A stretch of DNA of 32,000 nucleotides from Candidatus Helarchaeota ASGARD archaeon Hel_GB_B (GTDB lineage: Archaea > Asgardarchaeota > Lokiarchaeia > Helarchaeales > HEL-GB-B). The notes beneath the pieces were generated by a model that had not been told where the DNA came from, did not search any database, and worked only from the letters and a program-made list of their open reading frames with translations. The DNA lies in NCBI GenBank assembly GCA_005191425.1, contig SUPR01000029.1, positions 1-32,000 of the forward strand, written 5' to 3'. Positions 1,154-19,653 of this stretch are shown here, one piece after another (within the stretch, counting starts at the first letter, position 1; every line of letters begins with the position of its first letter). Position numbers and translations under genes: made by a program.

Positions 1154-2410
1154 ATGTGTTTGATAGAGAAAAGCAATAAAAAAGCAGGTAAAAAGAGTAA
1201 ATTTAATAAAAATATTATAAAAAAGTATTTATTGTTAATTATAATATTTTATATACTTAACGGGTATATTTACTTAATTAATAATGTGAATGCATTTGAT
1301 AAATTTAGCTATGAACTTGAAAATAATTATACGGAATTAGACAAACCTGATTTTGCTATAACAAATGATTACATAGTTGCTTTAAACAGTTATATTTATC
1401 AAAACTATTCCTTTTATGTTATTAACAAAATTACAAGGAAATTAGAGAGGGTTGACACTTTAGAAGTTTTTGGGGAGCAATTTCAACCTTTGTTAGTAGC
1501 AGGTAATAATGATTTAAATTATACACAAAATTTAGTTGTAATGGTAAATGAGTGGGGTGATTTACTATTAGTTGATTTGAATCTTAATAAGATAATTAAA
1601 TCAACAAATTCGATATATTCAAATATTGATTATGAAATTAAGGGTTTAAAATATTACAAGCAATATATCATTTTAATCGCAAAAATTCCGAGTTCTAGCA
1701 GTTATTTTCTTGCAATTCTTAATGATGATTTGAGTTTGATTTATAATTTCTATTTAGAGGATAGTAGTAAGTATTTATTACAAAATTTGAAAATTTGTGA
1801 AAATTTTTTATTGACGATTTTTACACCAAAAGGTAATGAAAATATAGAGGATGAATTGTTCATATATAATCTGACGCAATTAGATGTACCACCCACAAAA
1901 ATAGTATTGGGAATAAATATATATGATTCTGCCATTTCAAAATATTATAATTTAATTTATATTGGAACTAAGGGTTCAATTATTTTTTTAGATTTAAAGG
2001 CATATTCAGTGGTAGATAGTTATAACCTCTCAATTATTCAATCATTGACTAATATTGGAAATTTAAAAGTTTATAACAATCAAATTGTTCTTTCATTTGT
2101 ATTTGATTCAAAAATTTACTTTTTCAACATTATTAATAGGACGAGTATTAATTATAAAGGATATATTTCAGGCCTAGAATTAGCAAATCAATTAGAGTTC
2201 GAATTTTTAGAACAATTAAGCAATAAATCTACTAGAATGGTAATAAATACATATACAAGTCTTCTTATAATCAAATTTAACCAAGATATTATGGATCCAT
2301 CCGTCTATGAAAAATATGGTATTAATATTCAAGAGTCTATGCCTATTATTTTACTTATTTTAGGCATTTCAGTAGTAGTACTATTTGTTCAACATAAAAA
2401 ACAAAAGTGA
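1154..2410 (+). CDS. Surface/membrane-anchored protein, possibly a beta-propeller
   Basis: Basic N-terminus with a hydrophobic stretch (YLLLIIIFYILNGYIYLI), a beta-strand-rich repetitive body, and a C-terminal TM helix with basic tail (PIILLILGISVVVLFVQHKKQK). Confidence 0.75.
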   Translation: MCLIEKSNKKAGKKSKFNKNIIKKYLLLIIIFYILNGYIYLINNVNAFDKFSYELENNYTELDKPDFAITNDYIVALNSYIYQNYSFYVINKITRKLERVDTLEVFGEQFQPLLVAGNNDLNYTQNLVVMVNEWGDLLLVDLNLNKIIKSTNSIYSNIDYEIKGLKYYKQYIILIAKIPSSSSYFLAILNDDLSLIYNFYLEDSSKYLLQNLKICENFLLTIFTPKGNENIEDELFIYNLTQLDVPPTKIVLGINIYDSAISKYYNLIYIGTKGSIIFLDLKAYSVVDSYNLSIIQSLTNIGNLKVYNNQIVLSFVFDSKIYFFNIINRTSINYKGYISGLELANQLEFEFLEQLSNKSTRMVINTYTSLLIIKFNQDIMDPSVYEKYGINIQESMPIILLILGISVVVLFVQHKKQK

Positions 2411-2416
2411 ATTACC

Positions 2417-4894
2417 GTGAAATATAAATTAGATAAATATAATGATTATGAATACGAAAAAAGGATAGCAAACTTTCTATGGAAGAGTAGAGAAAATAAA
2501 ACACAATATTATAATTTAAAAGACATTATTATGACTATCTTACTAATAACTATTAGTATTTTTATAGCAGAAGCTATGACCTTATGGGTTAATATGTTTT
2601 GGACTTTAGCATTTTTAACAATAATGATGTTTTTCTCGGCATTTTTAATAAAATATTCTAGATTTTATAGATTACTACCGCTTCATTCTTCAATAATAGA
2701 AGAAATACAGCTACCAAATTCTATTAAATATTTCTTTTTGTTAGATAAAAATAATAGACCTAATTATGATGTTTTGTTTATTGATAATGGTGATAAAACA
2801 ACAGGATTAACATTATTTAAAATTAAAGCTCCCTCAAAGAAATTGTTTTATAGTTTTAATGAGTTTGTTAGAGGATTATATGAGAAAAAGGATGTCCCAC
2901 TTTTTTGGTATCAAGTCCAAGAACCTGTTGAATATAAAGATTTTATTGAACTAGATTGCATAACAGAAAAAGCAAAAAATAAACTTCTAATGTATCCAAG
3001 AGATTCTCGTGAATCATTACTTGTAGTTCCAGGTGGAATCTGGCGGACCACTATAATTTTTGGTACAAAAGGATTTACCGTACCAAATGCTCCATTGAAC
3101 GAATTAAAATTATTGTTAAAAAAGCTTGAAGTCTTGCGAATTAAGTTATTGACTAATTTTAAAGGGGTATCTTCTGGAATACCGATTAGTCCATTGACTA
3201 AAAAAGAATTATTTTCACTGGTCAATTCATTAATGATTAACCAAGATTGTGAGCAGTCAGTTTTTTACCAAACAGGTATTGAAAATGTGAATCATTTTCT
3301 AAATTTTCCAAAAATGGCAATTAAAAGTTTGAAATCAAAATATCCAGCGGAATTTACAGTACCTACCGATCTACCATATGATATTGGCCCACTTGGATAT
3401 TCTATAGAACCAGAATTTCAATCTACAGAACGGAGCATTGGATTATATTCTAAAGAATTAGGGCATGGATTATTAAGTGTAGGGGCTATCCAAGATGAAT
3501 TATTTAAAATTAATACCTTAGTTTTATACGAAGCTGTCATTCAGGAATATTCGTTTATAATTATTACCAGTAATAAAAAATATAGAAAAATGCTACAATA
3601 TATAGATAACCTGACTATTTTTCCATATAAAAAATATGGTATAGATATTTTTAATGATGAAGGATTTGAGCGTGAAAAATATATCTCAGAATTAGAGAAA
3701 ATCTTCAAAATATCATTATCATTAGACCAAGATGCTCCGCTTTATTCGATTTTAATTGAAATATATAATGAAGGAAATAGAAGTATCGATGGCTTAATTA
3801 GGCTTATTGAAGACAAAATAAAAAATGAAGGAACTGATATGAATTATAGAGATAGACAGGCCATTAATACTCTTAAAGAAACTCTCGAATTACTATTAAA
3901 AAGTGAAACTGCTAAATTTTTTGAGCTAAAGAATTTACCAATAGATAATAGATTACATAATTCAATTTTTGAAATAGATATTAGACAAAGAAAAGTAAAA
4001 AAGATTGTAATTTTTCTATTACTTTTAAAATTCGCTATAAAATCAATAGTTGATCAAAATTTCGGAAAAAATTTAATAATATTAATTGATGATGCAGATT
4101 TTATTTTTCATGACGAACGGCCCTACTCGCATGGAAATTTAACAGAACGGGAATTAACGACAATTGAATTCCTTAAATTCTTAAAGAGGTCTGGTGTTAT
4201 TCCATTTTTATCAATTTCAAATCCTAAAGATATAATCCCAGATATTATTAATGAATTAGGGAATGCTTTTGTTTCAAATATGAAAATTTTCGATAATATT
4301 ATGGCTATAAGGCAAGTATTAAATTTAAATTTAAACCGTGGCCAAAAAACAGAGGAACATAAACCTACTTTTTATTCAGAATTACGTAAATATGGATATC
4401 AATTTGAATATTTAAGTGATATGGCACCTAATGAATTCTTATTGAAAAGACCTGGTGTTAGGACATGTTTTCCGATATCTATTAGGCCATTAGAATTTAA
4501 TAACATAAATTATTCTGATGACCAAATTTTAAACCGAACTTATACTCAGATCCCTGAACTTAGAAAAACATTCTCAATTCCTGATTATGAAACAGTCCTT
4601 GAAAAAGACTTTAAGGGCGATCAAGATGATATCAATTCAGTTTTAGAAATTCTAGAAATTTTAATGGAATATCCAAGGATCTCTTTAAGCGCAATCATTT
4701 CTGCAACTTCATTAAATCAGAAAGAAGTTGATTATTTTATTAAATCACTTAAAAAATGCAAGTATATTAGGGCAGAGCAAGTGAGAAGTGGAGCATTTAA
4801 CAGATATGAAATCATAATAACAGATAAGGGTAGGTCTGTATATAGAGAATATATTCATTTAAAAAAAAGATTGACAGATGATGAAAATGAATAA
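2417..4894 (+). CDS. Membrane-anchored VirB4/HerA(DUF87)-like protein with degenerate Walker A and a C-terminal winged helix
   Basis: Two N-terminal TM helices. ELGHGLLSVGAIQDELF...FIIITSNKKYRKM aligns by eye with the family pattern H-x-l-I-x-G-x-TGSGKT...viiiDpxGEY but lacks GKT. Walker B-like IILIDDADF; LSDMAPNEFLL is typical of the family C-terminus. A MarR-like wHTH follows (ISLSAIISATSLNQKEVDYFIKSLKKCKYI...ITDKG). GTG start 6 nt after the previous stop. Confidence 0.7.
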   Translation: MKYKLDKYNDYEYEKRIANFLWKSRENKTQYYNLKDIIMTILLITISIFIAEAMTLWVNMFWTLAFLTIMMFFSAFLIKYSRFYRLLPLHSSIIEEIQLPNSIKYFFLLDKNNRPNYDVLFIDNGDKTTGLTLFKIKAPSKKLFYSFNEFVRGLYEKKDVPLFWYQVQEPVEYKDFIELDCITEKAKNKLLMYPRDSRESLLVVPGGIWRTTIIFGTKGFTVPNAPLNELKLLLKKLEVLRIKLLTNFKGVSSGIPISPLTKKELFSLVNSLMINQDCEQSVFYQTGIENVNHFLNFPKMAIKSLKSKYPAEFTVPTDLPYDIGPLGYSIEPEFQSTERSIGLYSKELGHGLLSVGAIQDELFKINTLVLYEAVIQEYSFIIITSNKKYRKMLQYIDNLTIFPYKKYGIDIFNDEGFEREKYISELEKIFKISLSLDQDAPLYSILIEIYNEGNRSIDGLIRLIEDKIKNEGTDMNYRDRQAINTLKETLELLLKSETAKFFELKNLPIDNRLHNSIFEIDIRQRKVKKIVIFLLLLKFAIKSIVDQNFGKNLIILIDDADFIFHDERPYSHGNLTERELTTIEFLKFLKRSGVIPFLSISNPKDIIPDIINELGNAFVSNMKIFDNIMAIRQVLNLNLNRGQKTEEHKPTFYSELRKYGYQFEYLSDMAPNEFLLKRPGVRTCFPISIRPLEFNNINYSDDQILNRTYTQIPELRKTFSIPDYETVLEKDFKGDQDDINSVLEILEILMEYPRISLSAIISATSLNQKEVDYFIKSLKKCKYIRAEQVRSGAFNRYEIIITDKGRSVYREYIHLKKRLTDDENE

Positions 4895-5795
4895 ACTAAA
4901 GTTCATTTCTAATTTCATTATTATATTTTTTATGATTAATTTTATAATAGTAGGTTTAATCCCAAATATTTTTGGTATTTCTAATGCTACTCAGACATCA
5001 AATAATTTATATTTTTTATCGGTCGGAGAAGCGTATTATGAGTCAAAATCTAATGAACTTATACCAAATGAAGGACCAGCAATTTGGCATATTAAAACAA
5101 ATTTTGATAATGAATGCATATATATCTTATTTGATATTATGGACACAACAAATCCTGATAACAAAAATTTAGATCATTTGACATTTTATATTGATTTCAG
5201 CAATAATAATTATTTATCTGATAAATCGTCTTTTGGATTCTATATACAACGCAATTTATTAATTAAATATTACAGATACAATACAAATCAAGGAAATTTC
5301 GTTGAGGTATGTCCTCCCGATGACGGATCTATGGGTACTATACATATTTTACCTTCCTGGAAAGTTTATTATGTTTTTAATTATTCTCAATTTGGATATC
5401 CGAAATATCCCGAAAATCAGACGATAAAATTAATGGCAATTTATACAGACCATATTATTGGGTCTATTATATTAGATTATAAATATCCCAGTCTATGTAA
5501 CAGCTTATTAAAGAGTTCTTGGGCTACAGGGTATTTTATTGAAGGGTATTCAAATAATGATGCTTTTGTTATTACAATTTGGATATTAATTTTTATTATA
5601 ATTGCTGGATTTGCACTTATTTCATATAAACAATATAAAAGTTCATCAGAATTTCAAAAATTCAATAATAATAGACCTAAAAACAAAACAAATAGTTTAT
5701 TGAATTTTTCTATTCCAAGATTAAATGAAGAAGATTCTGGTGATGATGATATAAATTATGAAATTGATTCATTTGAAGGTTATGAACCATGGTAA
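4878..5795 (+). CDS. Single-pass surface protein with a DOMON/CBM9-like domain and acidic cytoplasmic tail
   Basis: N-terminal signal/TM; WHIKTNFDNECIYILFDIMD...DHLTFYIDF resembles the DOMON/CBM9-like pattern; C-terminal TM (VITIWILIFIIIAGFALISY) then EEDSGDDDINYEIDSFEGYEPW. Overlaps the upstream gene by 17 nt. Confidence 0.65.
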   Translation: MMKMNKLKFISNFIIIFFMINFIIVGLIPNIFGISNATQTSNNLYFLSVGEAYYESKSNELIPNEGPAIWHIKTNFDNECIYILFDIMDTTNPDNKNLDHLTFYIDFSNNNYLSDKSSFGFYIQRNLLIKYYRYNTNQGNFVEVCPPDDGSMGTIHILPSWKVYYVFNYSQFGYPKYPENQTIKLMAIYTDHIIGSIILDYKYPSLCNSLLKSSWATGYFIEGYSNNDAFVITIWILIFIIIAGFALISYKQYKSSSEFQKFNNNRPKNKTNSLLNFSIPRLNEEDSGDDDINYEIDSFEGYEPW

Positions 5796-6018
5796 ATTCT
5801 GAAATATTATTTGAGAAATCTCTTGTGTTAAAATTTTTAGAAATTTTTAAAATGAAAAAAATCAAATTGCTAAAAAAATGGGTTGATTATACAGCCCGAA
5901 TCATCTTTACCTTAAAAAATAACTGTAAAATACATTTGATATTATCAAAACTTAAAAAGAATTACATGTTTTATCATATAAAAACTTATATTCCAAATAT
6001 TAAATCTATATTAAGGAT

Positions 6019-8496
6019 GTGTGCAAAATGAAAAAGAAGTCAACATTAATTATTGTTATTTTCATAATAACTGCACTGGTACTCATAATTAATTTAAAAT
6101 ATATGAACCAAAATAATATTTTGACTAAAAAAGACCTAAAAACTAATATACAACATTCTCAAGCCGAACCTTACTTCTATACTGTATATTCATCAAACTA
6201 TTATACAAGCTCAAATTACTCTATATTTGGCGGTCTTGCTGATTTAAAAACAGAAGTTCCAGGATTCATGAGTATTTCAAAATCATTTCATGGAATAGAG
6301 GGCTTAATATATATTGAATATGAATTTGATATGAGAAATATATATACAGATATAATGGACACTTTCATAATAGATTTACTTGCAAACGGAGGAATGAACT
6401 TAACTGGAACGACTAATCTAACCTTATACGTCTATAATTATACTACAGACAATTATATATCGATCTATAAAATAAATGGAGACACTGAAAATATTTTTAG
6501 AAAAAATGGATACATTGAAGTAGAACTTTCAAAAATATTTGGTATTAATAATATAAAATATAATTTAATCTCGCAATATAAAATGAAATTCAAAATTGTA
6601 TTACATAATAAATTGGTTAATACAATACCTCAAGATTTTGAGCAGAAATTATACATTTATTATATCCAATTATTAATTGGAAAAGATATTGAAATTAGAA
6701 ATTTAGAAGCTTCAAGGTTGGTCGACCTCACAAATGGATATTTTCATGTAATAGGAAATTTGACTAATATGTTTGAATTAGATAATAAAACAATTCAGTT
6801 TGGAATTTCTAATGTATTTCAATATCAAACGGTAATAGCGAATTTTTATATTGAATATGACCTTGGGTATTTCGTAAAAGAGGAAATCCTAGGCATTTTG
6901 TTCCATCATTTAGACTGGATATATAGTTCTGGCGCTAGCTTTTATTGCGAAGATCCGTATATTTCAATTTTTAATTTCAATACCAATTCTACTATATCCA
7001 TTCAGTCAATTAAAGAAGATCCACAAAGCTCACTAGAGAATGTTGATCCAATAAGGTGGGATAGTCGAATCAGTGTGAATAAAACCGGCGTTATTAATGG
7101 TTCGGTTATTAGGGTCTATTATCATGCAAAAATTACAAATTTAGATCCAGCGCCTGCTTATTTTAGTATTACTATAGACCTGGGTACAATACAATTTGTA
7201 AGATCGCTAAGTCCTTTTGTAGCTAATGTAAATGTAATTGACAATTATGAATATTGGGGAAATAATGCTTGGATAAATGGGACTGTCTACAAGGGAAAAT
7301 ATGATTTGGCTAACATTACTATTGAATCCTCAGGTGATGTTATTTCTACTGTTCCAGGTTATTTTGAATACCCAATAGTTATAAATTCTGAGGGACAATA
7401 TGAATTTTATGTAAAAGCAACAGACATATATGGCTATTCTAGTATTTCCGGCCCTTATTATATACAATTCAATAGCCACCCAGTCCAAATTAACTTATTA
7501 CTCGAAGAATTCCCATATCCAACCCCTCCAGATTTACCTAAAATAGATGTAAATATCTTAATTAAAGATGCTATTTTTAATATACCTTTGTCCAATACTT
7601 TTTTTGATCTATTTGTCGAACGAAATAATACCATAATAACAACTTATCGTAATTTATTAACAGGAGAAGATGGGACTTATCAACTTTATTACGATGTAGA
7701 ACGCGATAAATATCTTGATATAGAATATAAATTTACAGTTGAAGTCCATCAAATGATGAATTATCAATATGCTTCAGCATCATCATATATAATGCCTACA
7801 CTTGCACCTTGTTATATCACAATAATTAATTATACAATATCTAACAATGCTTTTGCAGGGGATCATTTTAGTTTACAAATTGAATATTATTCTCTTGCCA
7901 ATTTTACAAATGCTTGGTTATTATTAAATAATTCAATAATTAGTGATTTAAATCTCCATGAAGGAAATAATACAATAAATATTATTAATGATAGAGCTGG
8001 GTTATGCAATTATCAAATTCGAGTTATTAATGACCACGGCTATTCTAATATTTCAAAACCATTATACCTATATTTTAAACCCAATCCTATTATTTGTGAA
8101 GTTAAACATGTAATTAATTATTTAAATAAATACTTATTCATTAACATTTCAATTTTGGATAAAAGGACTAATCAGACACTACCTAATATCCCTATTGATA
8201 TCACTATTTATGATAATAATTTAATATTCTGGAAAACAACACTTCCTTCTACTTTACCATACACTCCAATATATATTCAATTCGATTTATCTTCTCATAA
8301 TTTCTCAATATTTGTAAATATCAATAATACTTCGTTATATAAGGGCCAAAGTATTAAAATTTTAAACATAGCCTTTAAATATAAACCATATCCATATTCT
8401 GAAACAATTCTTATGGTCGTATTATCTGGTGTGGGCATATCTGTCTTTTTTATTCAAAATAAGAAAAACAATATACACATAAAAAAGGAGGATTAA
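6019..8496 (+). CDS. Large cell-surface glycoprotein-like protein with Ig-like segments and a C-terminal anchor
   Basis: KKKSTLIIVIFIITALVLII signal/TM (the real start may be ATG 6028). Many N-x-S/T sequons, Ig-like stretches (DVNILIKDAIFNIPLSN...TGEDGTYQL), and a C-terminal TM with FIQNKK. Confidence 0.75.
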   Translation: MCKMKKKSTLIIVIFIITALVLIINLKYMNQNNILTKKDLKTNIQHSQAEPYFYTVYSSNYYTSSNYSIFGGLADLKTEVPGFMSISKSFHGIEGLIYIEYEFDMRNIYTDIMDTFIIDLLANGGMNLTGTTNLTLYVYNYTTDNYISIYKINGDTENIFRKNGYIEVELSKIFGINNIKYNLISQYKMKFKIVLHNKLVNTIPQDFEQKLYIYYIQLLIGKDIEIRNLEASRLVDLTNGYFHVIGNLTNMFELDNKTIQFGISNVFQYQTVIANFYIEYDLGYFVKEEILGILFHHLDWIYSSGASFYCEDPYISIFNFNTNSTISIQSIKEDPQSSLENVDPIRWDSRISVNKTGVINGSVIRVYYHAKITNLDPAPAYFSITIDLGTIQFVRSLSPFVANVNVIDNYEYWGNNAWINGTVYKGKYDLANITIESSGDVISTVPGYFEYPIVINSEGQYEFYVKATDIYGYSSISGPYYIQFNSHPVQINLLLEEFPYPTPPDLPKIDVNILIKDAIFNIPLSNTFFDLFVERNNTIITTYRNLLTGEDGTYQLYYDVERDKYLDIEYKFTVEVHQMMNYQYASASSYIMPTLAPCYITIINYTISNNAFAGDHFSLQIEYYSLANFTNAWLLLNNSIISDLNLHEGNNTINIINDRAGLCNYQIRVINDHGYSNISKPLYLYFKPNPIICEVKHVINYLNKYLFINISILDKRTNQTLPNIPIDITIYDNNLIFWKTTLPSTLPYTPIYIQFDLSSHNFSIFVNINNTSLYKGQSIKILNIAFKYKPYPYSETILMVVLSGVGISVFFIQNKKNNIHIKKED

Positions 8497-8500
8497 TATT

Positions 8501-8779
8501 TTGCACTATCTATTTAATTTTAATGATTTTGTAATTATTGTTAATGATCTTTTTGGCAATATTTTTCAATTTTTAATAATATGTGCTACATTATTATTAA
8601 TTGTAAACCTTCTTCTTTACTTTTTCACAAATCAGAAAGATTTAAAACCTATATTAACCTGCATAGCTACAGTAGGAATTTGTACTCTTCTAAATTATTT
8701 GATTTTTGGCCGATTCCCTTCCTTACCTCCATTTTTACAATTTATTGAGGTATGGATCAAACAACTATTGGGACTATAA
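8501..8779 (+). CDS. Small two-TM hairpin membrane protein (VirB2/CedA1 pilin-sized)
   Basis: TTG start 4 nt after the upstream stop, with GGAGG RBS at 8487-8491. Two hydrophobic helices separated by the charged loop TNQKDLKP. The pilin assignment is inference only. Confidence 0.6.
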   Translation: MHYLFNFNDFVIIVNDLFGNIFQFLIICATLLLIVNLLLYFFTNQKDLKPILTCIATVGICTLLNYLIFGRFPSLPPFLQFIEVWIKQLLGL

Positions 8780-8902: not shown

Positions 8903-9283
8903 TTATATATTCCAAAAATCATAATAAAGTGATCCAGGGTCTATATTATCAGTATCTACATATATAGTCTCTAATTTTTCAATTAAACTTTTGGTTTCAT
9001 TATAGAATTCGATGGCGTCTTCCTTTTTTCCAAAATTTTTAATGAATTGAATTTCATTATTATCATAATTAAAAAAAATGTGGTCAAAATTAAGCCTAAA
9101 GTTGATCAATTTTAACATTTCTAAAAAGGTTTCAAATTGGGATAATTTAATCGTGCTAAAGAAATTATTAGAGAATAACTTTTTGAACCCTGATGAAATT
9201 AATAAAAGTACTTCATACTTATCTGATTTTTGTAAAATTTCGAGAAACCCGATTCTATTGTCATAATTTTTAAATTCGTTCAC
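8903..9283 (-). CDS. Hypothetical protein, 126 aa
   Basis: Protein-like composition; last gene of the apparent 11023-8903 operon (18-nt gap to the upstream gene). Confidence 0.6.
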   Translation of the reverse strand: MNEFKNYDNRIGFLEILQKSDKYEVLLLISSGFKKLFSNNFFSTIKLSQFETFLEMLKLINFRLNFDHIFFNYDNNEIQFIKNFGKKEDAIEFYNETKSLIEKLETIYVDTDNIDPGSLYYDFWNI

Positions 9284-9301: not shown

Positions 9302-9694
9302 TTAAAGTTCTGGGCCGAGTTTTTCAAATATGATTACAATTAAATAAAACAATTTTAACACAATTTTTTGGGTATTCATAGAATATTCTAGATTTTTGCT
9401 ATAGAACGAGAATTCATTATGGTCAATTAGAATGGAATCAATATTATATTTGGAAAGACATCTTGAAAAAATAATACATAATTCAATATATTTTCCAAAT
9501 TCTTCTTTATTTAAGCTTATTCTTTTAAAATTTATAGTTATAAAAAATTTGATGCCTTTTAATTCATTTGATAAAATTACATATTTAATTATCCCTTTAT
9601 CATATAAAATACACTCTTTATTTTTTTCAAAGATTTTTTCCCAATTGATATTATTTTCATTCATTAAAAAATCAATATTTAGCATTTTGTGCAC
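9302..9694 (-). CDS. Hypothetical protein, about 130 aa
   Basis: GTG start directly abuts the TAG of the LAGLIDADG-TFE gene. An alternative ATG at 9685 has an AGGTG RBS. Confidence 0.6.
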   Translation of the reverse strand: MHKMLNIDFLMNENNINWEKIFEKNKECILYDKGIIKYVILSNELKGIKFFITINFKRISLNKEEFGKYIELCIIFSRCLSKYNIDSILIDHNEFSFYSKNLEYSMNTQKIVLKLFYLIVIIFEKLGPEL

Positions 9695-11023
9695 CTAATA
9701 AGCTATTTTTATTGTATTAAAATTTTCATAACCAATCAATTTAGCATTAGATTTTAGTACAGAATTAATAAATTTAGTTAAAATCCGTAATTCTTGAGAT
9801 GGACGGGTCTCAGGGATTATTGTCATATTCATCAGGGTATTACATTCAGGACATTTGAAATCATCATTTTCAAAATATAATAAATAATTGAATGTTTTTA
9901 GGCAATTTGGACATTCCAAAATAATTGAATCGCCATTATTTTTTAGTTTATTATATTTGGATTCGAGCGATTTTTTAGTTAAATTAATAACTCGCATTGA
10001 ATTACTTATGAATTCTTTTCTCCCTCTTGCAAAATATTCGAGTATCCCCAATTCACTTAATTTGTATAGTGTGCGCCGAATTTCATTACTACCTACTTTA
10101 AATACTTGTTCTAATAAGGTATATGGAATTTTATCGTTATTATTATGATAAATACAATGCAATGAATACCCCCAAATTGTCAAATCAAATTCTTCAAGAG
10201 GATATAGGTTAATAATAGTCGTATAATATTTTTCTATCGAGCGTAATTCAAGTATTGTAGCCATGGCTAATGACTTGACTTTATCTGGCTTAAAATGCTT
10301 AAATAATAGCGTCAAATTACTTTTACCGCAGATTAAAAGTCCTTCATGATGGTCTGAGGATTTTATTCCAAGTTGAAATAAAATATCCTTGATTTGGTTT
10401 AGAAATGATTTTAAAAATTTTTTTTTGATATTAGAATGGATTTTTGAATTTAATAATCTTAAAATTAGAAATTCTCGAATTCCCCCCTGTCTGTTATTAA
10501 AAACATAATGAGCTTTTTTCGAACTAAAAAGTCCAGAAAGTATTCCCATTTTCACTTCATTAGAGAGTCCTTGAAGGATTTGTGGGCTCTGGATATTAAG
10601 TCCGATACATTTTAAATATTTTTTAAAAGAATTTGGAAACTTAACAATGAATTTTTGATAATATTTGTAAAATTTTTTTCTGTAGGTCTTACGTTTCTTT
10701 TCTTGCTTTTTGAGTTCTATTTTTACTCCAATTTTTTCACTAAATTTTTTAATAAAAGGAATTTGAGTGGGTTCTATGACCAAAATAAATTGTTTATTAG
10801 AAGAATAACTTGAACCAACGGCAATACCATAGAAATATCCATAATCATAATCTGGATTTTGTAATTTAAATTTTTGATTATTTATTAAAATATCGCAATT
10901 ATCAGTTAAATTCTTTAAAAATGGTGTTATTCGTACCCATTTATCATTATTAATATCATAATATTTAGCTTTTTCTTTACTTAGTCTATTAATTAGTAGT
11001 CTGTTGTTCAATATTCTAACCAC
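9695..11023 (-). CDS. Fusion of an inactive two-motif LAGLIDADG domain with a TFE-alpha/TFIIE-alpha-like wHTH and Zn ribbon
   Basis: LAGLIDADG-like helices GYFYGIAVGSS (aa 62-72) and GILSGLFSSKK (aa 160-170), both lacking the acidic catalytic residue; FLNQIKDILFQLGIKS is typical of intein-type LAGLIDADG domains. Then EIRRTLYKLSELGILEY (TFE-like wHTH), CPNC-x16-FKCPEC (TFE-like Zn ribbon) and a terminal helix ELRILTKFINSV. Confidence 0.75.
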   Translation of the reverse strand: MVRILNNRLLINRLSKEKAKYYDINNDKWVRITPFLKNLTDNCDILINNQKFKLQNPDYDYGYFYGIAVGSSYSSNKQFILVIEPTQIPFIKKFSEKIGVKIELKKQEKKRKTYRKKFYKYYQKFIVKFPNSFKKYLKCIGLNIQSPQILQGLSNEVKMGILSGLFSSKKAHYVFNNRQGGIREFLILRLLNSKIHSNIKKKFLKSFLNQIKDILFQLGIKSSDHHEGLLICGKSNLTLLFKHFKPDKVKSLAMATILELRSIEKYYTTIINLYPLEEFDLTIWGYSLHCIYHNNNDKIPYTLLEQVFKVGSNEIRRTLYKLSELGILEYFARGRKEFISNSMRVINLTKKSLESKYNKLKNNGDSIILECPNCLKTFNYLLYFENDDFKCPECNTLMNMTIIPETRPSQELRILTKFINSVLKSNAKLIGYENFNTIKIAY

Positions 11024-11263: not shown

Positions 11264-12244
11264 TTATGAATTAAAAATGTAATGATCAATCCGCTTTTGC
11301 TTTATTTTTAAATCTTTGAATCCTTTATTTAACCTGGCTAAACCTCTTCGCACTCTATTTATAGAAAAATTCTTCTCTAATAAATATTCCTTAATAGCCA
11401 AAATATTTGGATATTGAAAATAAACATCAAATTTTGAGGTTATTGGTTTCAAGAATAGGTTTCTAATTTTATTAGCATCAAATTCGTTAAATTCGTAGTC
11501 CTTTCTCATGGTCTCAATATTACCATATTTCTTTATCATTTTTAATGATGTTTTAGGGCCAAATCCTTCGAATCCTGGATGATAATCATTTCCCATTAAG
11601 ATAATGATATCAATCAATTGGTTAAAAGAAATATCTAATTTTGTAAGTACTTTATTCAAAGAGATTTGCTGTAAAGTATTAGTCTTAAAGTTCAATTTTC
11701 TATAAATCTTTGGACATCCAAATATTAAGCAATCATAATCTTCAGAAATAACTCCATATGCCTGTTGCTCTTTAACAAGGCGCACCGCTTGAGCTTCTCC
11801 CTCACTTGGTGCTCTAAATACCGGAACTCCGAACATTCGTATAAATTTAATTAAATCTTCAATTATATATTTATATAGGAAGAATGAATCTTTAAAAACC
11901 TTTAACTTACTTCCATTTCCACCTAAACTATTATATTTTTTCCATGCATTTGACAACCTCTTAATTTTATAGTAATTATATGGTCTTTTTTCTCTTGGTG
12001 GAATTCCATCAAAGATAAAAATTGGTTTAATTTTTCGTTCGATTAAATTTATAATAAAATAAAAGAAACCATAGATATGAGAGACTGGATTTCCATGATA
12101 ATCATAAAAAATATCTTGAGAATTTTTTATTTTTGTTATATATTTAAATAATAAGTTAGTTGCGTCAATAACAATCGTCTTATGTGAAATATCACTAAAA
12201 TTTATTGTTTCTGAAATTACAAGTTCTTTTAATTTAAGACCCAA
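11264..12244 (-). CDS. fen: Flap endonuclease 1 (XPG/FEN1 family)
   Basis: MGLKLKEL start (TTG, AAGGTGG RBS); IDAT, FDGIPP, APSEGEAQA, SEDYDCLIFG, GNDY and GFGPKTSLKMIKKYG motifs; C-terminal PIP-like QKRIDHYIF. Confidence 0.93.
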   Translation of the reverse strand: MGLKLKELVISETINFSDISHKTIVIDATNLLFKYITKIKNSQDIFYDYHGNPVSHIYGFFYFIINLIERKIKPIFIFDGIPPREKRPYNYYKIKRLSNAWKKYNSLGGNGSKLKVFKDSFFLYKYIIEDLIKFIRMFGVPVFRAPSEGEAQAVRLVKEQQAYGVISEDYDCLIFGCPKIYRKLNFKTNTLQQISLNKVLTKLDISFNQLIDIIILMGNDYHPGFEGFGPKTSLKMIKKYGNIETMRKDYEFNEFDANKIRNLFLKPITSKFDVYFQYPNILAIKEYLLEKNFSINRVRRGLARLNKGFKDLKIKQKRIDHYIFNS

Positions 12245-12394: not shown

Positions 12395-13168
12395 TTAAAC
12401 ATGATATAATTCACTACATGCGGATATATTTCTTATAATTTTATATAAAACAAATGACGGTAATATTTCAAATTCAACATGGGCAAATGCATTGCTAAAT
12501 ATCGACTTCATTATTAAAAGGTTAGTATCAATAATATTGTAAACTTTTTGTATATTTTTTTCATTTAGATTACCTTTTAATTTATAAAAACACCCGTATA
12601 AAATTTCAGTTTTCCATTTTTCCATTCTCGAAGGGATATTATCATGAAAATTTAAGAATAATTCAGGAAAATCATCAGCCCATTGTAAATATCTGTCATT
12701 ATTATTGTTAATTTCATTAACTGAAACAAAAGAATAATCATAAATTCTAAAAAAACAGAGATTATTATCGGCCATAGACCGAATAAATTTTTTAAGATTA
12801 CTCTGTATACCTAATGGAATTGATGCAATCCTGAAAATAGCTAAAGCAGATAAAGTTTTCCCATTATCTAATAATATAATGTGGTCATTTTCAATATTAT
12901 TTTTTAGGCGATAGAGTTTAGGTAATCTTGTAGGATTAATTAGCAAAACCCTTTTGTTTTTAATGAATTTTTTATCAATCTTGAAAAAATAAATTAATAG
13001 AATTATCATTGCTATTGAGAAGCCAAAAATAACATATATTATTGCTAATATTGGTAAATTAATAGATGAGATAAATAAAAAATAAAATATTATAGATAAA
13101 TACATAATACCAGTAATTAAAAATTTATTTTTAAAAACAAATCCAGCTATTTTTTCGAGAAATTTCAA
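12395..13168 (-). CDS. Two-TM membrane protein, paralogue of the N-terminal domain of the VirB4-like ORF 2417
   Basis: HIILLDNGKTLSALAIFRIASIP vs DVLFIDNGDKTTGLTLFKIKAP; NLKKFIRSM vs SFNEFVRGL; EKWKTEILYG vs GIWRTTIIFG. TTG start with GGAGTGA RBS. Confidence 0.75.
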   Translation of the reverse strand: MKFLEKIAGFVFKNKFLITGIMYLSIIFYFLFISSINLPILAIIYVIFGFSIAMIILLIYFFKIDKKFIKNKRVLLINPTRLPKLYRLKNNIENDHIILLDNGKTLSALAIFRIASIPLGIQSNLKKFIRSMADNNLCFFRIYDYSFVSVNEINNNNDRYLQWADDFPELFLNFHDNIPSRMEKWKTEILYGCFYKLKGNLNEKNIQKVYNIIDTNLLIMKSIFSNAFAHVEFEILPSFVLYKIIRNISACSELYHV

Positions 13169-13186: not shown

Positions 13187-13699
13187 TTATTTGATTAAAA
13201 ATTCAATTAGCCCAATAATGATATAAAAAATATTCCAAGCGATAATTATACCGTCATTTTGAAAAACCATCGGGTAGAAGCACATTCTCACAATTAAAAA
13301 TGTCATAAATCCCACCCAAAAAATTATCCAGGCAAGAAATATCACTTGCTTTTTTGTTAAAGAAAATTTATCTGAAACAAATAAATTGTATTGAAAAGAA
13401 TTGACATTTTTTTTACTACCATCAATAGAAATTATATCCGGAAGTTCTTTTGAAAGTTCCAACAAGATATTAACATTATCTTCTAGTTCTTTTATTTCAT
13501 CTGAAGATAAATTATTGTTAAAAATTGTGTCAAAATTAAAATCAATTTCATTCATTATGGTCTTAAAAGATAAAGCATTTGAAATTATTTCATTTGTATT
13601 ATTTTTTCTTATCAATAAATCCCAAATCACTACAATTGAAATTATTACTCCAATAATAACCGGCCAAAACGAAATAAAAAAATTGATAATTAAATCCAT
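13187..13699 (-). CDS. Multi-pass membrane protein (one N-terminal and two C-terminal TM helices)
   Basis: Hydrophobic segments FWPVIIGVIISIVVIW, VIFLAWIIFWVGFMTFLIV and IIIAWNIFYIIIGLIEF; GGGTG RBS; operon gaps of 9 and 18 nt. Confidence 0.7.
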   Translation of the reverse strand: MDLIINFFISFWPVIIGVIISIVVIWDLLIRKNNTNEIISNALSFKTIMNEIDFNFDTIFNNNLSSDEIKELEDNVNILLELSKELPDIISIDGSKKNVNSFQYNLFVSDKFSLTKKQVIFLAWIIFWVGFMTFLIVRMCFYPMVFQNDGIIIAWNIFYIIIGLIEFLIK

Positions 13700-13708
13700 A
13701 ATAACACC

Positions 13709-14134
13709 CTAATTTTCAAAATCAAATAATTCAGATGAAAAGAAATCTTCTAAATCACAATTCACCAATTCAGATTCAATTTTTCTTCTAATAATTTTGG
13801 TAATTTCGGGATTTGGCCCAATAATATAAACACAAACAAGGTCATTATTTAAAATAACATTTTTCGAGTTAGAATCATTGACCGAAATTATAGCATTTTT
13901 GAAGTAGAAAGTATCATAAATTCTTTTTGCACCGATAAATTTACTTGGAATTATGTTATTTATTAATAATATTTTCTGATTTTTAGTTATATATAATAAT
14001 TCAGATTCTTTTCTTCTTGAATAATATTTAGATCTGGCTAATCTAACATCTTTAGGAAGAAAATTTATGAGTCTAAAGTATAAATAGAAAATTATTCCGA
14101 CAATTATAACTCCAATCAGTAAAATCTCAATCAT
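13709..14134 (-). CDS. N-terminally anchored small membrane protein
   Basis: MIEILLIGVIIVGIIFYLYF anchor; first gene of a three-gene operon divergent from the helicase. ATTTATAAAT TATA-like box at 14151-14160. Confidence 0.7.
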   Translation of the reverse strand: MIEILLIGVIIVGIIFYLYFRLINFLPKDVRLARSKYYSRRKESELLYITKNQKILLINNIIPSKFIGAKRIYDTFYFKNAIISVNDSNSKNVILNNDLVCVYIIGPNPEITKIIRRKIESELVNCDLEDFFSSELFDFEN

Positions 14135-14233: not shown

Positions 14234-16897
14234 GTGAATAAATTGATCAAGTACGATAAGATCATTAAAGATATGTTAGAAAAAGTTGGTATCGAAAATT
14301 TACGGCCAATTCAGAAGCAGTCGGTGCCATTTATATTTGGGAAAAAGCCAAGAAACTTATTAATAGTGGCACCCAGTGCCAGTGGAAAAACTTTAATTGG
14401 GGAGCTTGCGTTAATGAATGCTGCATTAAACGGAATGAAAGGTTTTTATTTAGTCCCATTAAAATCTATAGCAAATGAAAAATTTATAGATTTCTTCAAA
14501 AAATATAGTGCTAATATTTCGATTGCAATCACTACGGGGGATTTTGATATCTCTATGGAAGAATTGGAAAAAAAACAAATAATAATAACAACATATGAGC
14601 GATTTGATTCAATTATTAGAAAAAAACCTTCTTGGTTTAAAAGGATTTTTGTAGTAGTTATTGATGAAATCCATAATATTGGCGATAGAACTCGTGGTAT
14701 AAAACTTGAGAGCCTTTTAACCCGACTTATGACTTATAATCAAATTCAAATTATTGGACTATCGGCTACAATTAAAAATCCAGAGGACTTAGCAAGCTGG
14801 TTAAATGCGGAATTAATAATAAACAAAGAAAGACCCGCAGAATTGCGATATAAAATTCTTATCTCAGAAAATAAATATGAAACCTTAAAAAATTTAATAC
14901 CAAAATTGGTCGAAAAAAAAGCACAAATACTAATTTTTACTAGAACTCGAAAAGAGTCAGAAAAATTAGCAAAAAATCTATCAAAAGTTGTCAAAAAATA
15001 CCTCACTTTTGATGAATTTCAGGAATTGGATTCATTTTCTAAAAATATTATGGAGTCATCACTTGATTTTCAGACAATTACTGGCGGTGTTGGCTATCAC
15101 CATGCCGGCTTAGATCATAATTCAAGAATTTTAGTTGAAAAATTGTTTAATAATTCATTAATTAAAGTCATTTGTTGTACTACTACATTGTCTTCCGGGA
15201 TAAATACGCCTGCAAATATTGTAATAATAAAGGATTTTAAAATGTACAATAATATTTCAAACAGACCAGAACTTTTGGATAAAAATAAATTCCATCAAAT
15301 TTCTGGAAGAGCTGGAAGATTTGAAAAAAATATTGGTTTTGCAATTATTATGGTATCAAATGAAGAGGAAGCAAATAAAGTAAAGGAATATTATTTTAAA
15401 GAAATTAATTTAAATAATGATAAATATCATAAAAAAAGCGTTTTAAAAGCTAAATATGAAAATATTTTTAGTTCATTACCTGAAAATAGATATGCTTTAA
15501 TCGATCAAACATTGGTTTTTATTCATCACCATGCTGAAGGAATAACTAGAAATGATTTAATTAGATTTTTTAAAAAGACATTCTTTTATTTTCAATTAAA
15601 AAGCCATGGAAATGAAGATTATTTAATAGAACGACTTGCGTTTGATAAAAAGAATATAGAAGCTGTCTTAAGAGCTCATTTAGTTAACCCCAATAACATT
15701 ATACCTGCGGAAGTAAAGGCTATACATATATTAGAAGATAGATTTGAAGGTATTGTTATTACTAATCATGAAAAAATTGATAGAATTTGTAGTTTTTCTA
15801 ATAATTCCCGATACTGCACTTGCTCCACTTTTAAAAATACAGGTTTTTGTATTCATTTATATCATTTAGCTATTGCAGCATTGAAAAAATATCGGATTTC
15901 ATCGGAAGATATCATTTTAAGTTCATTTAATGAAAATTTTATTTTAGATTATCTTCTTAATAACAATCTAATTTATATCGAAAATGAGCGGTTTAAGTGT
16001 ACAGAATATGGAAATTTAATTGTGAATCTATTTATAGACTCGCGTATGTTTCTATTTATTAGAAATAGATTGAAATTTACTACTTGTACTTATGATTTTT
16101 TAGATTTGATTAAAAAATTAACGGAATTAAAGTTTGAAAAATCTCTGAGTTATCATTATCTTTCAGTATTAAATGAAATAATAAATACTGACGAAAATAT
16201 CGATATTAATAAATTTTTAAAAAAGATGAGTACATCTGAAATTGGAATTGGTGACCTTGAGAGTTTTATAGAGGCATGTAGATGGGTAACTAATGTGATA
16301 ATAAAAGTTGCAGAAAATACAATTGAAGGAAACGAAAAAATCATTAATATTGGAAAAATGGTCTTGGATAAAATAAATAGACCATTACCAGATGAAGAAA
16401 TGATGTATAAAATAGTCCAAAGCTCAATGGGTTCGAATATTGGCATTATAAAAAGTAACGATGAAGATATGAAACGAATATTCTGTAAAAAAGTCAAATA
16501 TTTTTTAGTATTACATAAAATAAGCGGAGTCCCAATTTATTCATATAATTTCTCTCTTAATGACCTTGACTCGTCATTAATATCTGGTTATTTGACAGCA
16601 ATTAGTAGTTTCGGGCTAGAAATATCTGGAGGAATTCAAACAAACGTGAAAAAAATGGAATATGATAAAATGAAAATTTTGATACAAGAAGGAGAAAACA
16701 TTCGAGCTACTATTATCTTGGAAGAAGGATATGATGAATGGGTTTTAGAGCGACTTAAAATTTTTATTGAAAATGTTGAGAATAAATTTACAAATTTACA
16801 GAACTGGAATGGAGATTTAAACATGTTTCGGAATATCGGAAAAATGTTTAATGAAGTATTTGGTTATAATCTAATTGAAGACCCGCCAAATATTTAA
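14234..16897 (+). CDS. Ski2/Hel308-like SF2 (DEAD/DEAH-box) helicase with a SWIM Zn finger and a C-terminal longin-like domain
   Basis: Helicase motifs APSASGKT, DEIH, LSAT, TTTLSSGINTPA and QISGRAGR; CTC-x8-CIH (SWIM-like, about 15812-15860); C-terminal YFLVLHKISGVPIY...DSSLISGYLTAISSF longin-like domain (about 16493-16897). Confidence 0.88.
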   Translation: MNKLIKYDKIIKDMLEKVGIENLRPIQKQSVPFIFGKKPRNLLIVAPSASGKTLIGELALMNAALNGMKGFYLVPLKSIANEKFIDFFKKYSANISIAITTGDFDISMEELEKKQIIITTYERFDSIIRKKPSWFKRIFVVVIDEIHNIGDRTRGIKLESLLTRLMTYNQIQIIGLSATIKNPEDLASWLNAELIINKERPAELRYKILISENKYETLKNLIPKLVEKKAQILIFTRTRKESEKLAKNLSKVVKKYLTFDEFQELDSFSKNIMESSLDFQTITGGVGYHHAGLDHNSRILVEKLFNNSLIKVICCTTTLSSGINTPANIVIIKDFKMYNNISNRPELLDKNKFHQISGRAGRFEKNIGFAIIMVSNEEEANKVKEYYFKEINLNNDKYHKKSVLKAKYENIFSSLPENRYALIDQTLVFIHHHAEGITRNDLIRFFKKTFFYFQLKSHGNEDYLIERLAFDKKNIEAVLRAHLVNPNNIIPAEVKAIHILEDRFEGIVITNHEKIDRICSFSNNSRYCTCSTFKNTGFCIHLYHLAIAALKKYRISSEDIILSSFNENFILDYLLNNNLIYIENERFKCTEYGNLIVNLFIDSRMFLFIRNRLKFTTCTYDFLDLIKKLTELKFEKSLSYHYLSVLNEIINTDENIDINKFLKKMSTSEIGIGDLESFIEACRWVTNVIIKVAENTIEGNEKIINIGKMVLDKINRPLPDEEMMYKIVQSSMGSNIGIIKSNDEDMKRIFCKKVKYFLVLHKISGVPIYSYNFSLNDLDSSLISGYLTAISSFGLEISGGIQTNVKKMEYDKMKILIQEGENIRATIILEEGYDEWVLERLKIFIENVENKFTNLQNWNGDLNMFRNIGKMFNEVFGYNLIEDPPNI

Positions 16898-16900
16898 TAT

Positions 16901-18859
16901 TTACAAATTAATTTTGTTATAAAACATTTTTACAATTCTTCCAACAAGTCCCTCATATTTTTCGATTTTTATAATCCTGTCTTGTATCCAATTACTTAAT
17001 AATTTAAAATATTTTTTATAAAAAAATCTTTCATCTAAAAATATTATTATTCCTTTATCATCAAGTTTTCTGATAGGTCTTCCTGCTGATTGATTTGCTT
17101 TTCTTAAAGCAGGGATATAATACGCATATTCCAGTCCTCGTTCTTCACCAAATAAGTTTTGATAATATTTAATCAATTTTTTTATTGAATACGAAATTTT
17201 TGCAAAAGGTATGCCAACTATGACTACAGTACTCATTTCCTTACCTGGAAAATCTACACCCTCAGAGTTTCTACCACCAGATGCACCAATTAAAAACCCT
17301 CTCATACCCTTGTAAGGTAATTTCTTATATTCAGTGATCATAGCTTCGTTCTCTTTACTATTCATACTTTTAGATTCCATGAAAAATTTGATCCCCAATT
17401 CCTCTATTTTTTCTTTTAGCCCTTGTTCTAAAAGTCCATTAATTACTGAATAAGATGCACAGAAAACCCCTGTATTATATTTTGTGTTTTTAGCTGCTTC
17501 AACACAACAATTCATGATAAACCTATAATTCTCTTCAGTTCGGTCTTCAAATTTTAGAGTGATATCTTGTACTCCTATTATTGAAACATTTTCAAATGGG
17601 AATGGCGATGGTAGTATTCGTTCTTTAGTATTATCAAGGGTCATCCCGCAAATTTCTCGGAATGCTCGTATCGGCGCTAAAGTACCAGAAATTATCACCA
17701 AATTTCTTGCATTAAATAAATCATTTAAAATGGGTCTAACATCAAGTGTTTTAATCACAAACTCAACATTTATTTTATTTTTAACTTTAGATACTCTTAA
17801 AATATGAATATAGTCTGGTCTTAAATAATTTTGATAGATAAATTGTAAAAAATGTGCTGTTTTATATAGGCTAGACCTAGGAAGTTTATTATTTTTAAGC
17901 ATTAATTCTCGAACTTGTACCCCTTTTTCTATTAAATTATTGAAAAAATTCTCAATATTGTCTGTTTTTATTTGAGAGAAAATATTTTTTAATGTACTTT
18001 TTCTAACAGCTATTTCGATAGTTTCACCCTCTTTTGGGTCGTATGCCATCCCAGTAGTTTCAATAAATGATTTAATGTCCTTAAGAAATTGTATTGATGG
18101 GACATCATCGTCTAATAGTAATCCAATTAATTCATCTAAAGCTCTTTTAACTGATCTGGGTGTGATTTGTTGAGTCCCTGCTTCTAATGCCACATCAATT
18201 ATATTATGCCCTTCATCAAATACAATTATGCAATCAGAAATTAATTTATCGATATCTTTGAAAAAAATTTGCCTGATAAATGGGTGAATTAGATAATTGA
18301 ATGTCGTAATAATTACATCAGTCTCTTTCAATAGTCTTTTTGCCAGATAATAAGGACATATATTATATCTTACGCCAATAGCAATTAATTCTTCACTTTT
18401 ACCTGTTTTTAAATTATATTCAAAATTTTGTAAATTGGTGAAATATTTACAACTTCCATTTTTTCGCAATTGGCTACAAAGATCTGTAATCTCCATTATT
18501 GTCCCTCTCCTGACTTCTTCATTAAGACACATCTCGGTTTTCCCTTTTAATGTTAAACCTCTAACCACATAACCTTGATCACTACCTTTTTTGTTTATTT
18601 CCTCTAATTCAGCAATAACCCTATCCATTTGGGTATGCGTCCGAGTAGCATATATCATAGTTAAATTGTTTTGCTTGATAATTGGTATAATAGCAGATAA
18701 AGTTGTTATTGTTTTACCAGAACCATTTGCAGCTTCTATGAGAATGAATTTATGTGGTAATTTTAAATGGTCATATATTTCATTCATTAATAGACCTTGT
18801 CCAGGCCTAAGTGAATTATAGGGAAAAAACTTTCTAATTGAAGAAGGAATTGATATCAT
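16901..18859 (-). CDS. xpd: XPD/Rad3/DinG-family Fe-S DNA helicase
   Basis: AANGSGKT; four Fe-S cysteines (KTEMCLN, DLCSQ, GSCKYF, ICPYY); DEGHN, SGTLAP, SEGVDF and NQSAGRPIR motifs. Confidence 0.92.
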   Translation of the reverse strand: MISIPSSIRKFFPYNSLRPGQGLLMNEIYDHLKLPHKFILIEAANGSGKTITTLSAIIPIIKQNNLTMIYATRTHTQMDRVIAELEEINKKGSDQGYVVRGLTLKGKTEMCLNEEVRRGTIMEITDLCSQLRKNGSCKYFTNLQNFEYNLKTGKSEELIAIGVRYNICPYYLAKRLLKETDVIITTFNYLIHPFIRQIFFKDIDKLISDCIIVFDEGHNIIDVALEAGTQQITPRSVKRALDELIGLLLDDDVPSIQFLKDIKSFIETTGMAYDPKEGETIEIAVRKSTLKNIFSQIKTDNIENFFNNLIEKGVQVRELMLKNNKLPRSSLYKTAHFLQFIYQNYLRPDYIHILRVSKVKNKINVEFVIKTLDVRPILNDLFNARNLVIISGTLAPIRAFREICGMTLDNTKERILPSPFPFENVSIIGVQDITLKFEDRTEENYRFIMNCCVEAAKNTKYNTGVFCASYSVINGLLEQGLKEKIEELGIKFFMESKSMNSKENEAMITEYKKLPYKGMRGFLIGASGGRNSEGVDFPGKEMSTVVIVGIPFAKISYSIKKLIKYYQNLFGEERGLEYAYYIPALRKANQSAGRPIRKLDDKGIIIFLDERFFYKKYFKLLSNWIQDRIIKIEKYEGLVGRIVKMFYNKINL

Positions 18860-19629
18860 TTATTATAAACCCCTTTTTTATAGTTATATAGAAGTTTTCC
18901 AGTTAATAGACTAACAAGTATACCAATTACAATTGAAATTATCATATAATTATAATTTATAAAAAATAAATTTATAAGATTAGAACGAGCAAATCCTGAA
19001 TAATTAGAATTGATTATTGTACAAGTTAATATCGGCTCAGATACTAGATTTTCTCTTATTGAAACTTCATATTTCAACAATATTTTAGAATTTATATCAT
19101 AATAATAGGAAATAATCAGTGCTTGAGTAAAAACTGTTATAATATGTGTATAGACTTGACATAAAATCAACCCGATTTTATTTCCGAAATCAATCACTTC
19201 TAACTGGGATTTCTGAAATAAAACTTCTGATGGGGAAAGATTTGTAGCCAATATTATTTGTGGTTGAAAATCCATTAATATCCACTGCTGATGGTCATTA
19301 TCTTGGTCTTTACCAGTTTCTGGATCTATATAATATGTGCTACTTTTTATATATTCGAAAAAATTTAATCTATAGTTTTCAGTATATGTGACAATTATAA
19401 CCTGACTAGAAATATTAAATTGAACTTCGATATTCGATTGATATTGACCTTTTAAATAGAAGGAATCAGGACTAATCTCTATCAAATTTCCATTAACTAT
19501 ATATGATACATTAAAATTGCCTAAAGTTGCTGAATAAGTTATTTTTGAATAGAAAATTAACATATTAAATAAACCAAAAATAGATAAAAGAATAATAAAA
19601 AAAATACTAGCCCTATTTTTAAAATTCAT
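18856..19629 (-). CDS. Surface protein with N-terminal signal/TM and C-terminal TM, inside the radA-xpd operon
   Basis: Hydrophobic termini (ASIFFIILLSIFGLFNMLIFY; YMIISIVIGILVSLLTGKLLY). Its stop overlaps the xpd ATG by 4 nt; it starts 24 nt after radA. Confidence 0.75.
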   Translation of the reverse strand: MNFKNRASIFFIILLSIFGLFNMLIFYSKITYSATLGNFNVSYIVNGNLIEISPDSFYLKGQYQSNIEVQFNISSQVIIVTYTENYRLNFFEYIKSSTYYIDPETGKDQDNDHQQWILMDFQPQIILATNLSPSEVLFQKSQLEVIDFGNKIGLILCQVYTHIITVFTQALIISYYYDINSKILLKYEVSIRENLVSEPILTCTIINSNYSGFARSNLINLFFINYNYMIISIVIGILVSLLTGKLLYNYKKGVYNK

Positions 19630-19653
19630 CTGCTCTCACAATAATGAAATTTT

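Follow-up and report, generated by a model that had tools for sequence, protein, structure and literature searches.

What use does a cell have for a membrane protein that is built like a DNA-transfer motor but has lost the site at which such motors handle ATP? The question is raised by a gene of Candidatus Helarchaeota archaeon Hel_GB_B, whose assembly (GCA_005191425.1) holds 3.54 Mb in 182 contigs at ~25% GC and is 93.7% complete. The window, meaning the whole stretch of 32,000 nucleotides that was analyzed, covers bases 1-32000 of contig C106 (SUPR01000029.1). The gene, called the target here, is the open reading frame (ORF) at 2417-4894 (+), which begins with GTG and encodes 825 amino acids (aa); the ORF call and the translation define it, and its orthologues align with it from end to end. 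The protein consists of a transmembrane hairpin, a soluble domain referred to as the N-module, a catalytically dead domain of the VirB4/HerA kind, and a winged helix.

The explanation favored here, at a probability of roughly 0.6, is that the target is a non-catalytic platform that holds DNA and recombination and repair enzymes at the membrane. The hairpin would anchor the protein, with the soluble parts probably in the cytoplasm, and the N-module would pair with its stand-alone paralogue, the gene for which lies 7.5 kb away. The VirB4-like domain would keep its fold and presumably oligomerize, the usual binding and hydrolysis of ATP having been lost, and the C-terminal winged helix would offer a surface for binding DNA. 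Energy would come from partner helicases or, in a few lineages, from an active ATPase encoded next to the family gene.

A motor fold and its lost ATP site

The structure of the target was modeled with AlphaFold2 on an alignment of 37 relatives, giving a mean predicted local distance difference test score (pLDDT) of 84.4; a single-sequence model (pLDDT 35.7) was unusable. The model agrees with an original prediction, made earlier from the sequence, of two transmembrane segments, a soluble domain, an ATPase-like fold, and a winged helix-turn-helix. The hairpin spans aa 34-86 (nt 2516-2674, +), and its model helices at 34-53 and 59-86 coincide with hydropathy segments at 33-51 and 60-78. Because basic residues flank the hairpin on both sides, the positive-inside rule suggests an N-in/C-in topology, which would place all soluble domains in the cytoplasm. 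The N-module, a soluble alpha/beta domain at aa 94-304 (nt 2696-3328, +), is paralogous to stand-alone proteins. It is followed by the dead RecA-type domain, similar to VirB4, HerA, and TrwB and carrying a helical insert, at aa 308-706 (nt 3338-4534, +), and by the winged helix-turn-helix at aa 736-801 with a terminal helix at 803-824 (nt 4622-4888, +).

The fold places the target in the FtsK-HerA superfamily, with a RecA-like core of the additional-strand catalytic-glutamate type, the strand order of HerA, VirB4, and TrwB, and the helical insert. The original prediction would have failed had residues ~340-700 shown no RecA-like fold, and both structural comparisons find one there. With Foldseek, the top match of the model is HerA (4d2i, E 1e-12), and TrwK/VirB4 is found as well, the C-terminal domain of VirB4 (4ag6) at a template-modeling score of 0.71. 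VIA-align gives Z scores of 28.6 for DndH-C, 28.5 for VirB4 (4ag5; 327 residues over model 315-695 at a root-mean-square deviation of 3.0), 25.6 for HerA, 23.4 for TrwB, and 14.3 for FtsK. Full-length alignments to TrwK span model residues 100-712, with a high global deviation over 100-300, and since they start at residue 100, the N-module may resemble part of the VirB4 N-domain. Weak leads from a language-model atlas for the stand-alone N-module point to VirB4_TrbE_N, TraC_F_IV, and DUF3875 (scores 0.79-0.80), and the Pfam family CagE_TrbE_VirB has no match in the target genome at E up to 10. When the target alone is the query, Pfam and NCBIfam return no ATPase family, and phmmer returns no PDB chain.

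The C-terminal region has the H1-beta-H2-H3-beta-beta topology of a winged helix in the model. Its Pfam matches over residues 742-814 are sub-threshold (HTH_34 at E 0.0015, with 19.1 bits against a cut-off of 27, and HTH_24), as is the single-sequence match to Sso10a (E 4e-4), and the family profile matches PadR/MarR chains at E 0.002-0.01. This likeness to PadR, MarR, and Sso10a could mean that the target is a membrane-tethered transcription regulator, with the winged helix on promoters and the dead domain acting as a sensor or oligomerizer, and fusions of NTPase-like domains to winged helices are common among archaeal regulators. Such a role is unlikely, however, since a transmembrane hairpin with an N-module of what is probably the VirB4 type is typical of translocation machines, and the genes conserved around it encode membrane proteins and DNA-repair enzymes, not a regulon-like set.

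What sets the target apart from working motors is its ATP site. The remnant of the P-loop reads GAIQDELF (aa 356-363, nt 3482-3505, +) where the motif GxxGxGKT had been expected, and that of Walker B reads DDAD (aa 558-561, nt 4088-4099, +). The family profile puts GAIQDELF on GSTGSGKS of HerA 8xau (E 4e-8), and hhalign puts it on GIPKTGKS of P0049, an active ATPase encoded beside a family gene (probability 96%), and pairs DDAD with the EEAH of this active relative. These alignments reveal sequence homology to active members of the superfamily, and they confirm the positions that the original prediction had assigned to both motifs in the open frame. The target has neither a Walker A motif of the form GxxxxGK[ST] nor a Walker B of the form hhhhDE with its catalytic glutamate, as an active ATPase would, and Leu362 occupies the position of the Walker A lysine. 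Assembly error is ruled out as the source of the motifs, since both regions are identical in low-depth contigs from other public metagenome runs (records 19 and 14); contigs of these other runs cover the target gene only in patches.

One could suppose that the target copy is simply decaying, in which case close orthologues should have kept Walker A. None does. GK[ST] is found in 0 of 51 family members, as aligned from the homologues of the representative search and from genes of 24 further genomes, and the loss is a property of the whole family. Its P-loop consensus is G-[GD]-[ST]-x-x-[EDQ]-R-[FH], in which the second glycine has given way to an acidic or polar residue and the serine or threonine to an aromatic or other residue. 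About nine tenths of the members carry an arginine that is assigned to the lysine position because the profile (8xau) and hhalign alignments place the motif there. The same-genus relative has it, unlike the target with its leucine, and Leu, Val, or Thr is found in two other members. Leucine also stands at the arginine position, independently of Leu362, in a protein of 966 aa that belongs to another class (L061:2990-5890, -; genome G181; QNQDELDL). Walker B has degraded as well, to hhhh[DE]xx[DE] in family members of ~800 aa and to hhhhP[NH]x[DE] in those of ~1270 aa.

The arginine, together with the conserved acidic residue at Walker B +3, could also mean that a nucleotide or some other phosphate ligand is still bound at the site, non-canonically and with arginine in place of lysine, and that the protein acts as a switch. 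This is quite improbable. The target itself and the two members with Leu, Val, or Thr lack the arginine, the serine or threonine that would hold magnesium is absent throughout the family, and the Walker B aspartate has been lost in the entire branch of 1250-1300-aa proteins. With the model, the VIA-align comparison, and the family-wide loss of the motifs in agreement, the description of the target as a membrane-anchored pseudo-ATPase of the VirB4/HerA type stands.

The family and its possible partners

How widespread is such a protein? An exhaustive search of 1.84 billion representatives returned 40 proteins at E up to 1e-3, and a word-indexed homologue search returned 4 close relatives, to which a profile added none. 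The named relatives are hypothetical proteins of metagenome-assembled genomes (MAGs) of Helarchaeota or Lokiarchaeota. Within the class, the family profile (E up to 1e-10) has matches in 121 of 151 genomes, including 35 of the 40 that are of high quality. Within the phylum, at E up to 1e-6, it has matches in 140 of 201, including 66 of the 86 that are of high quality, and the weakest of the phylum-level matches may be other HerA-like proteins. No Pfam or NCBIfam family covers it, which means that current annotation misses it, and no description was found in the literature on Asgard archaea with VirB4, CedB, HerA, or DNA import. The target belongs to a previously undescribed family that is conserved across Asgard archaea.

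The family comes in three forms. The first, like the target, is a single chain of ~780-850 aa with the N-module, the dead domain, and the winged helix. In the second, the protein is split into an N-module of ~250-310 aa and a separate protein of ~520-535 aa. The third, a chain of 1235-1314 aa with two N-modules in tandem, is the form found in the largest family of the class. Two loci (G008:C11 and G010:C11, or L027 and L028) and several of the phylum matches have one or two in-frame TAA or TGA codons close to where the N-module joins the ATPase-like domain; their place would fit the split two-gene form, with recoding or a frameshift as alternatives. An 847-aa family gene was recovered from two sequencing runs (L004 and L005). 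An active ATPase gene follows it in L005 only, and in L004 it is followed by other genes, including tyrosine-recombinase-like and restriction-modification genes; the difference may reflect an insertion or the assembly.

The presence of a tyrosine recombinase and restriction-modification genes near this one distant member (L004), as well as the loss of even the family arginine from the target, might suggest that the gene is decaying or is left over from a conjugative element. This reading is largely refuted and barely credible: the ORF is intact at 825 aa, its orthologues (35-51% identity to the target) are full length and syntenic, and the family is chromosomal and phylum-wide, with a fixed neighborhood and a sequence reproduced in other samples. 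Its ORFs are counted as intact in the matching genomes of the class (121 of 151) and the phylum (140 of 201).

The original prediction proposed a hetero-oligomer with an active paralogue encoded elsewhere. The evidence instead favors a partner that is itself non-catalytic, namely the N-module paralogue encoded on its own at 12395-13168 (-). This protein has 257 aa, with two transmembrane segments and a soluble domain, and matches the family hidden Markov model (HMM) at E 7e-20, with links by BLAST as well. Stand-alone N-module proteins are encoded before the family gene in L004, L006, L007, L019, and L021, and in most of the class, the paralogue is fused in tandem to the family protein (the 1235-1314-aa forms), which argues that the two N-modules cooperate. 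A complex prediction for target aa 1-300 with the 257-aa paralogue scored 0.75, compared with 0.00 for the best of three controls. The 0.75 mark is reached by 58 of 80 solved complexes and by 2 of 110 mismatched pairs, and in this prediction, the contacts agreed between runs to at least 89% and the partner had a pLDDT of at least 66. The result supports binding of the two proteins in the model.

Two further genes stand with that of the N-module paralogue on the minus strand. Directly upstream of it, a 170-aa membrane protein (13187-13699, -), with ~3 hydrophobic segments predicted from its sequence, matches the HMM of cluster c31 at E 5e-13, and the two genes are paired in this way in L006 and L046 too. 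At the head of the trio is the gene for a 141-aa protein (13709-14134, -) with one N-terminal hydrophobic segment, which, from its position, may belong to the N-module set.

What then of the active paralogue? In motors that alternate live and dead subunits, an inactive subunit forms a mixed ring with an active one, and an ATPase of ~800-870 aa with intact GIPKTGKS and EEAH is encoded directly downstream of the dead gene in L007, L019/L020, and L005. With that query, however, an adjacent active DUF87/HerA_C ATPase was found in 5 of the 151 genomes of the class, an orthologue (of P0049) was not found in the target genome, and the common operons contain no P-loop protein. The target genome does encode other DUF87 proteins with an intact Walker A. 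The best ATPase-domain match to the family HMM in that genome (E 1.5e-14) is a soluble 363-aa protein (C139:50011-51102, -; also L024:7012-8103, -) with an intact Walker A, GDVFSGKS, and a Walker B of the DxxD type, as in the dead family. Its gene lies among housekeeping genes, beside those for a class II aminoacyl-tRNA synthetase and an RPA-like protein. Since no genus but its own yielded it (2 of the 151 class genomes), it was rejected as a general partner. The genome also encodes two paralogous ATPases of the DUF87 type, 1375 and 1440 aa long (C135:17476-21603, -, and C140:17765-22087, -), in which ~5 N-terminal transmembrane segments are combined with intact GLIGMGKT and EDAQ/EDSQ; they may be live membrane motors from the superfamily to which the target belongs. 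No evidence links these or the 363-aa protein to the target. A mixed ring is therefore doubtful, and the partner that the data favor is the N-module paralogue.

The recombination neighborhood

A possible setting for the proposed platform is given by the genes around it. Across the phylum, the family gene usually lies in a block with the genes for RadA, XPD, a Hel308-like helicase, and FEN1. Of 24 sampled loci, 18 have a Hel308-like gene no more than 10 kb from the family gene, and the operon of the largest family in the class is divergent from this helicase gene. Another class (L058, L059, L064-L066, and L068) repeats the arrangement RadA, XPD, family gene, Hel308-like, FEN1, and in L022 the order is Hel308-like, family gene, FEN1. 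It is this phylum-wide company that makes tethering of DNA by the winged helix more plausible.

In the window, the same block can be recognized by Pfam matches and synteny. FEN1 (XPG_I/XPG_N) is encoded at 11264-12244 (-), and the Hel308-like helicase (DEAD/Helicase_C; cluster c1 HMM, E 5e-131), an orthologue of the one found beside the family gene throughout the phylum, at 14234-16897 (+). The genes for XPD, for a separate 257-aa protein without a Pfam family, and for RadA lie at 16901-20751 (-). The slot that the family gene would ancestrally fill, between the FEN1 and Hel308-like genes, is taken by the minus-strand trio ending in the N-module gene, and the target has moved ~7.5 kb away from it into a string of surface-protein genes.

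Several points weigh against the platform. The repair-gene synteny could be an inherited order without functional coupling, and the relatives are not independent samples. Since the target has been displaced into a surface-protein string, its role in this order may differ from that in other lineages. Since both N-modules are paralogues, the heterodimer of the prediction may be no more than a reflection of a homodimer mode, which could give the same score of 0.75. The winged helix scores below Pfam thresholds. Finally, the near-invariant family arginine and the acidic Walker B +3 residue hint at a retained ligand site, a hint tempered by the leucine of the target. Even so, a family kept throughout a phylum, with the build of a DNA-transfer motor, a lost ATP site, and a fixed place among RadA, XPD, Hel308, and FEN1, is a testable candidate for a membrane-linked step in recombination or DNA exchange, and a platform is the role we infer for it.

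One could consider a more ambitious form of this idea, in which the dead protein, the N-module paralogue as its partner, and the small membrane proteins make up a platform on the cytoplasmic face of an Asgard-wide chromosomal apparatus for the exchange or import of DNA. Such an apparatus would derive from the same stock as the conjugation and Ced machines, and in place of the original motor it would use Hel308-like recombination helicases, docked on a passive ring. Contact with other cells would, in this order, fall to the surface glycoproteins that flank the target. This is a tentative possibility.

The string in which the target now lies is tight, with gaps or overlaps of a few bases, and its membrane and surface genes of 418, 305, and 825 aa are kept in two related MAGs (L002 and L003). 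The neighbors of the target are small transmembrane and surface proteins without a Pfam family. Upstream by 6 nt, the gene at 1154-2410 (+) encodes 418 aa with hydrophobic segments at both ends, probably a surface protein, and stays beside the family gene in both MAGs. The gene for a 305-aa membrane protein (4878-5795, +), the start of which overlaps the target stop, also keeps its position there. At the end of the string (6019-8779, +) come a sequon-rich protein of 825 aa, with a signal-like N-terminus and a C-terminal anchor, and a 92-aa ORF, kept as a pair in both MAGs and without a family; an atlas search with the surface protein gave low-score leads only. The 80-aa ORF at 5789-6031 (+) overlaps both its neighbors, has no homologue detected in L002 or L003, and may not be a real gene. 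On the other strand, two genes without a family, at 8903-9283 (-; 126 aa) and 9302-9694 (-; 130 aa), are kept in related MAGs beside a 442-aa gene (9695-11023).

Operons elsewhere contain further genes. In the largest family of the class, the operon starts with a gene of cluster c2 (L038:4608-6725, +), which encodes 534-796 aa with an N-terminal helix-hairpin-helix domain (HHH_5, E 4e-14) and two transmembrane helices near the C-terminus; its product would be a membrane-anchored DNA binder. The protein of cluster c5 (L038:12274-13200, +; also L037, L040, L041, and L044), encoded after the 1270-aa form, is soluble and helical and has an R-x4-H stretch (RNNAVH) reminiscent of HEPN motifs.

Comparison with known systems

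The target shares parts with several known machines. HerA (4d2i, 8xau) is the closest by sequence profile and the top Foldseek match, and it is likewise tied to recombination genes. However, HerA, the end-resection translocase of the HerA-NurA pair, is soluble and has a HAS-barrel N-domain and intact motifs, unlike the target. No NurA partner was seen beside the target, and the genome has HerA-like proteins of its own with intact motifs (506 aa on C139 and 544 aa on C98).

Among the closest systems, VirB4/TrwK (4ag5, 7o42, 8rtd), the ATPase at the inner membrane in type IV secretion and conjugation, is the best structural match for the C-terminal domain, and the TrwK alignments reach into the N-module. 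A transmembrane hairpin in front of the N-domain recalls the fusions of VirB3 to VirB4. Compared to VirB4, the target lacks the Walker A lysine, the serine or threonine, and the catalytic glutamate, has a winged helix in addition, and is encoded in the chromosomal core instead of on a plasmid. No VirB2, VirB3, VirB6, or VirB8 gene is recognizable by Pfam beside it.

The crenarchaeal Ced system serves recombinational repair; its genes are induced by DNA damage, and CedD, which is essential for DNA import, consists of a transmembrane domain, a VirB4-NTD-like domain, and a HerA/VirB4-like ATPase domain (PMC11868833). CedB and CedD are paralogues whose N-domains have been proposed to complement each other (PMC11868833). 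Judged by this published description (PMC11868833), the target is like CedB/CedD in its layout of transmembrane, possibly VirB4-NTD-like, and HerA/VirB4-like parts, in its predicted pairing with an N-module paralogue, and in its recombination-gene neighbors. It differs in being catalytically dead and in carrying a winged helix, and no CedA-like or pilin genes were identified with it. The absence of ATPase motifs argues against equivalence with CedB/CedD, and because the target fails the catalytic criteria of both VirB4 and CedB/CedD, it is not assigned as a member of either.

The order of parts is also that of FtsK/SpoIIIE, in which FtsK has an N-terminal transmembrane anchor, a linker, a domain of the FtsK-HerA superfamily, and a C-terminal winged helix (the gamma domain). 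Compared to these, the target has a weaker structural match, no match to Pfam FtsK_SpoIIIE, and dead motifs. The retention of dead domains has a parallel in EssC/EccC of type VII secretion, where degenerate FtsK-like domains are kept as structural parts of the translocase. There, however, the dead domains share their chain with live ones to which they are fused, whereas the target has no live domain at all, and the family would be a clean natural example of a ring-ATPase fold retained for a structural role.

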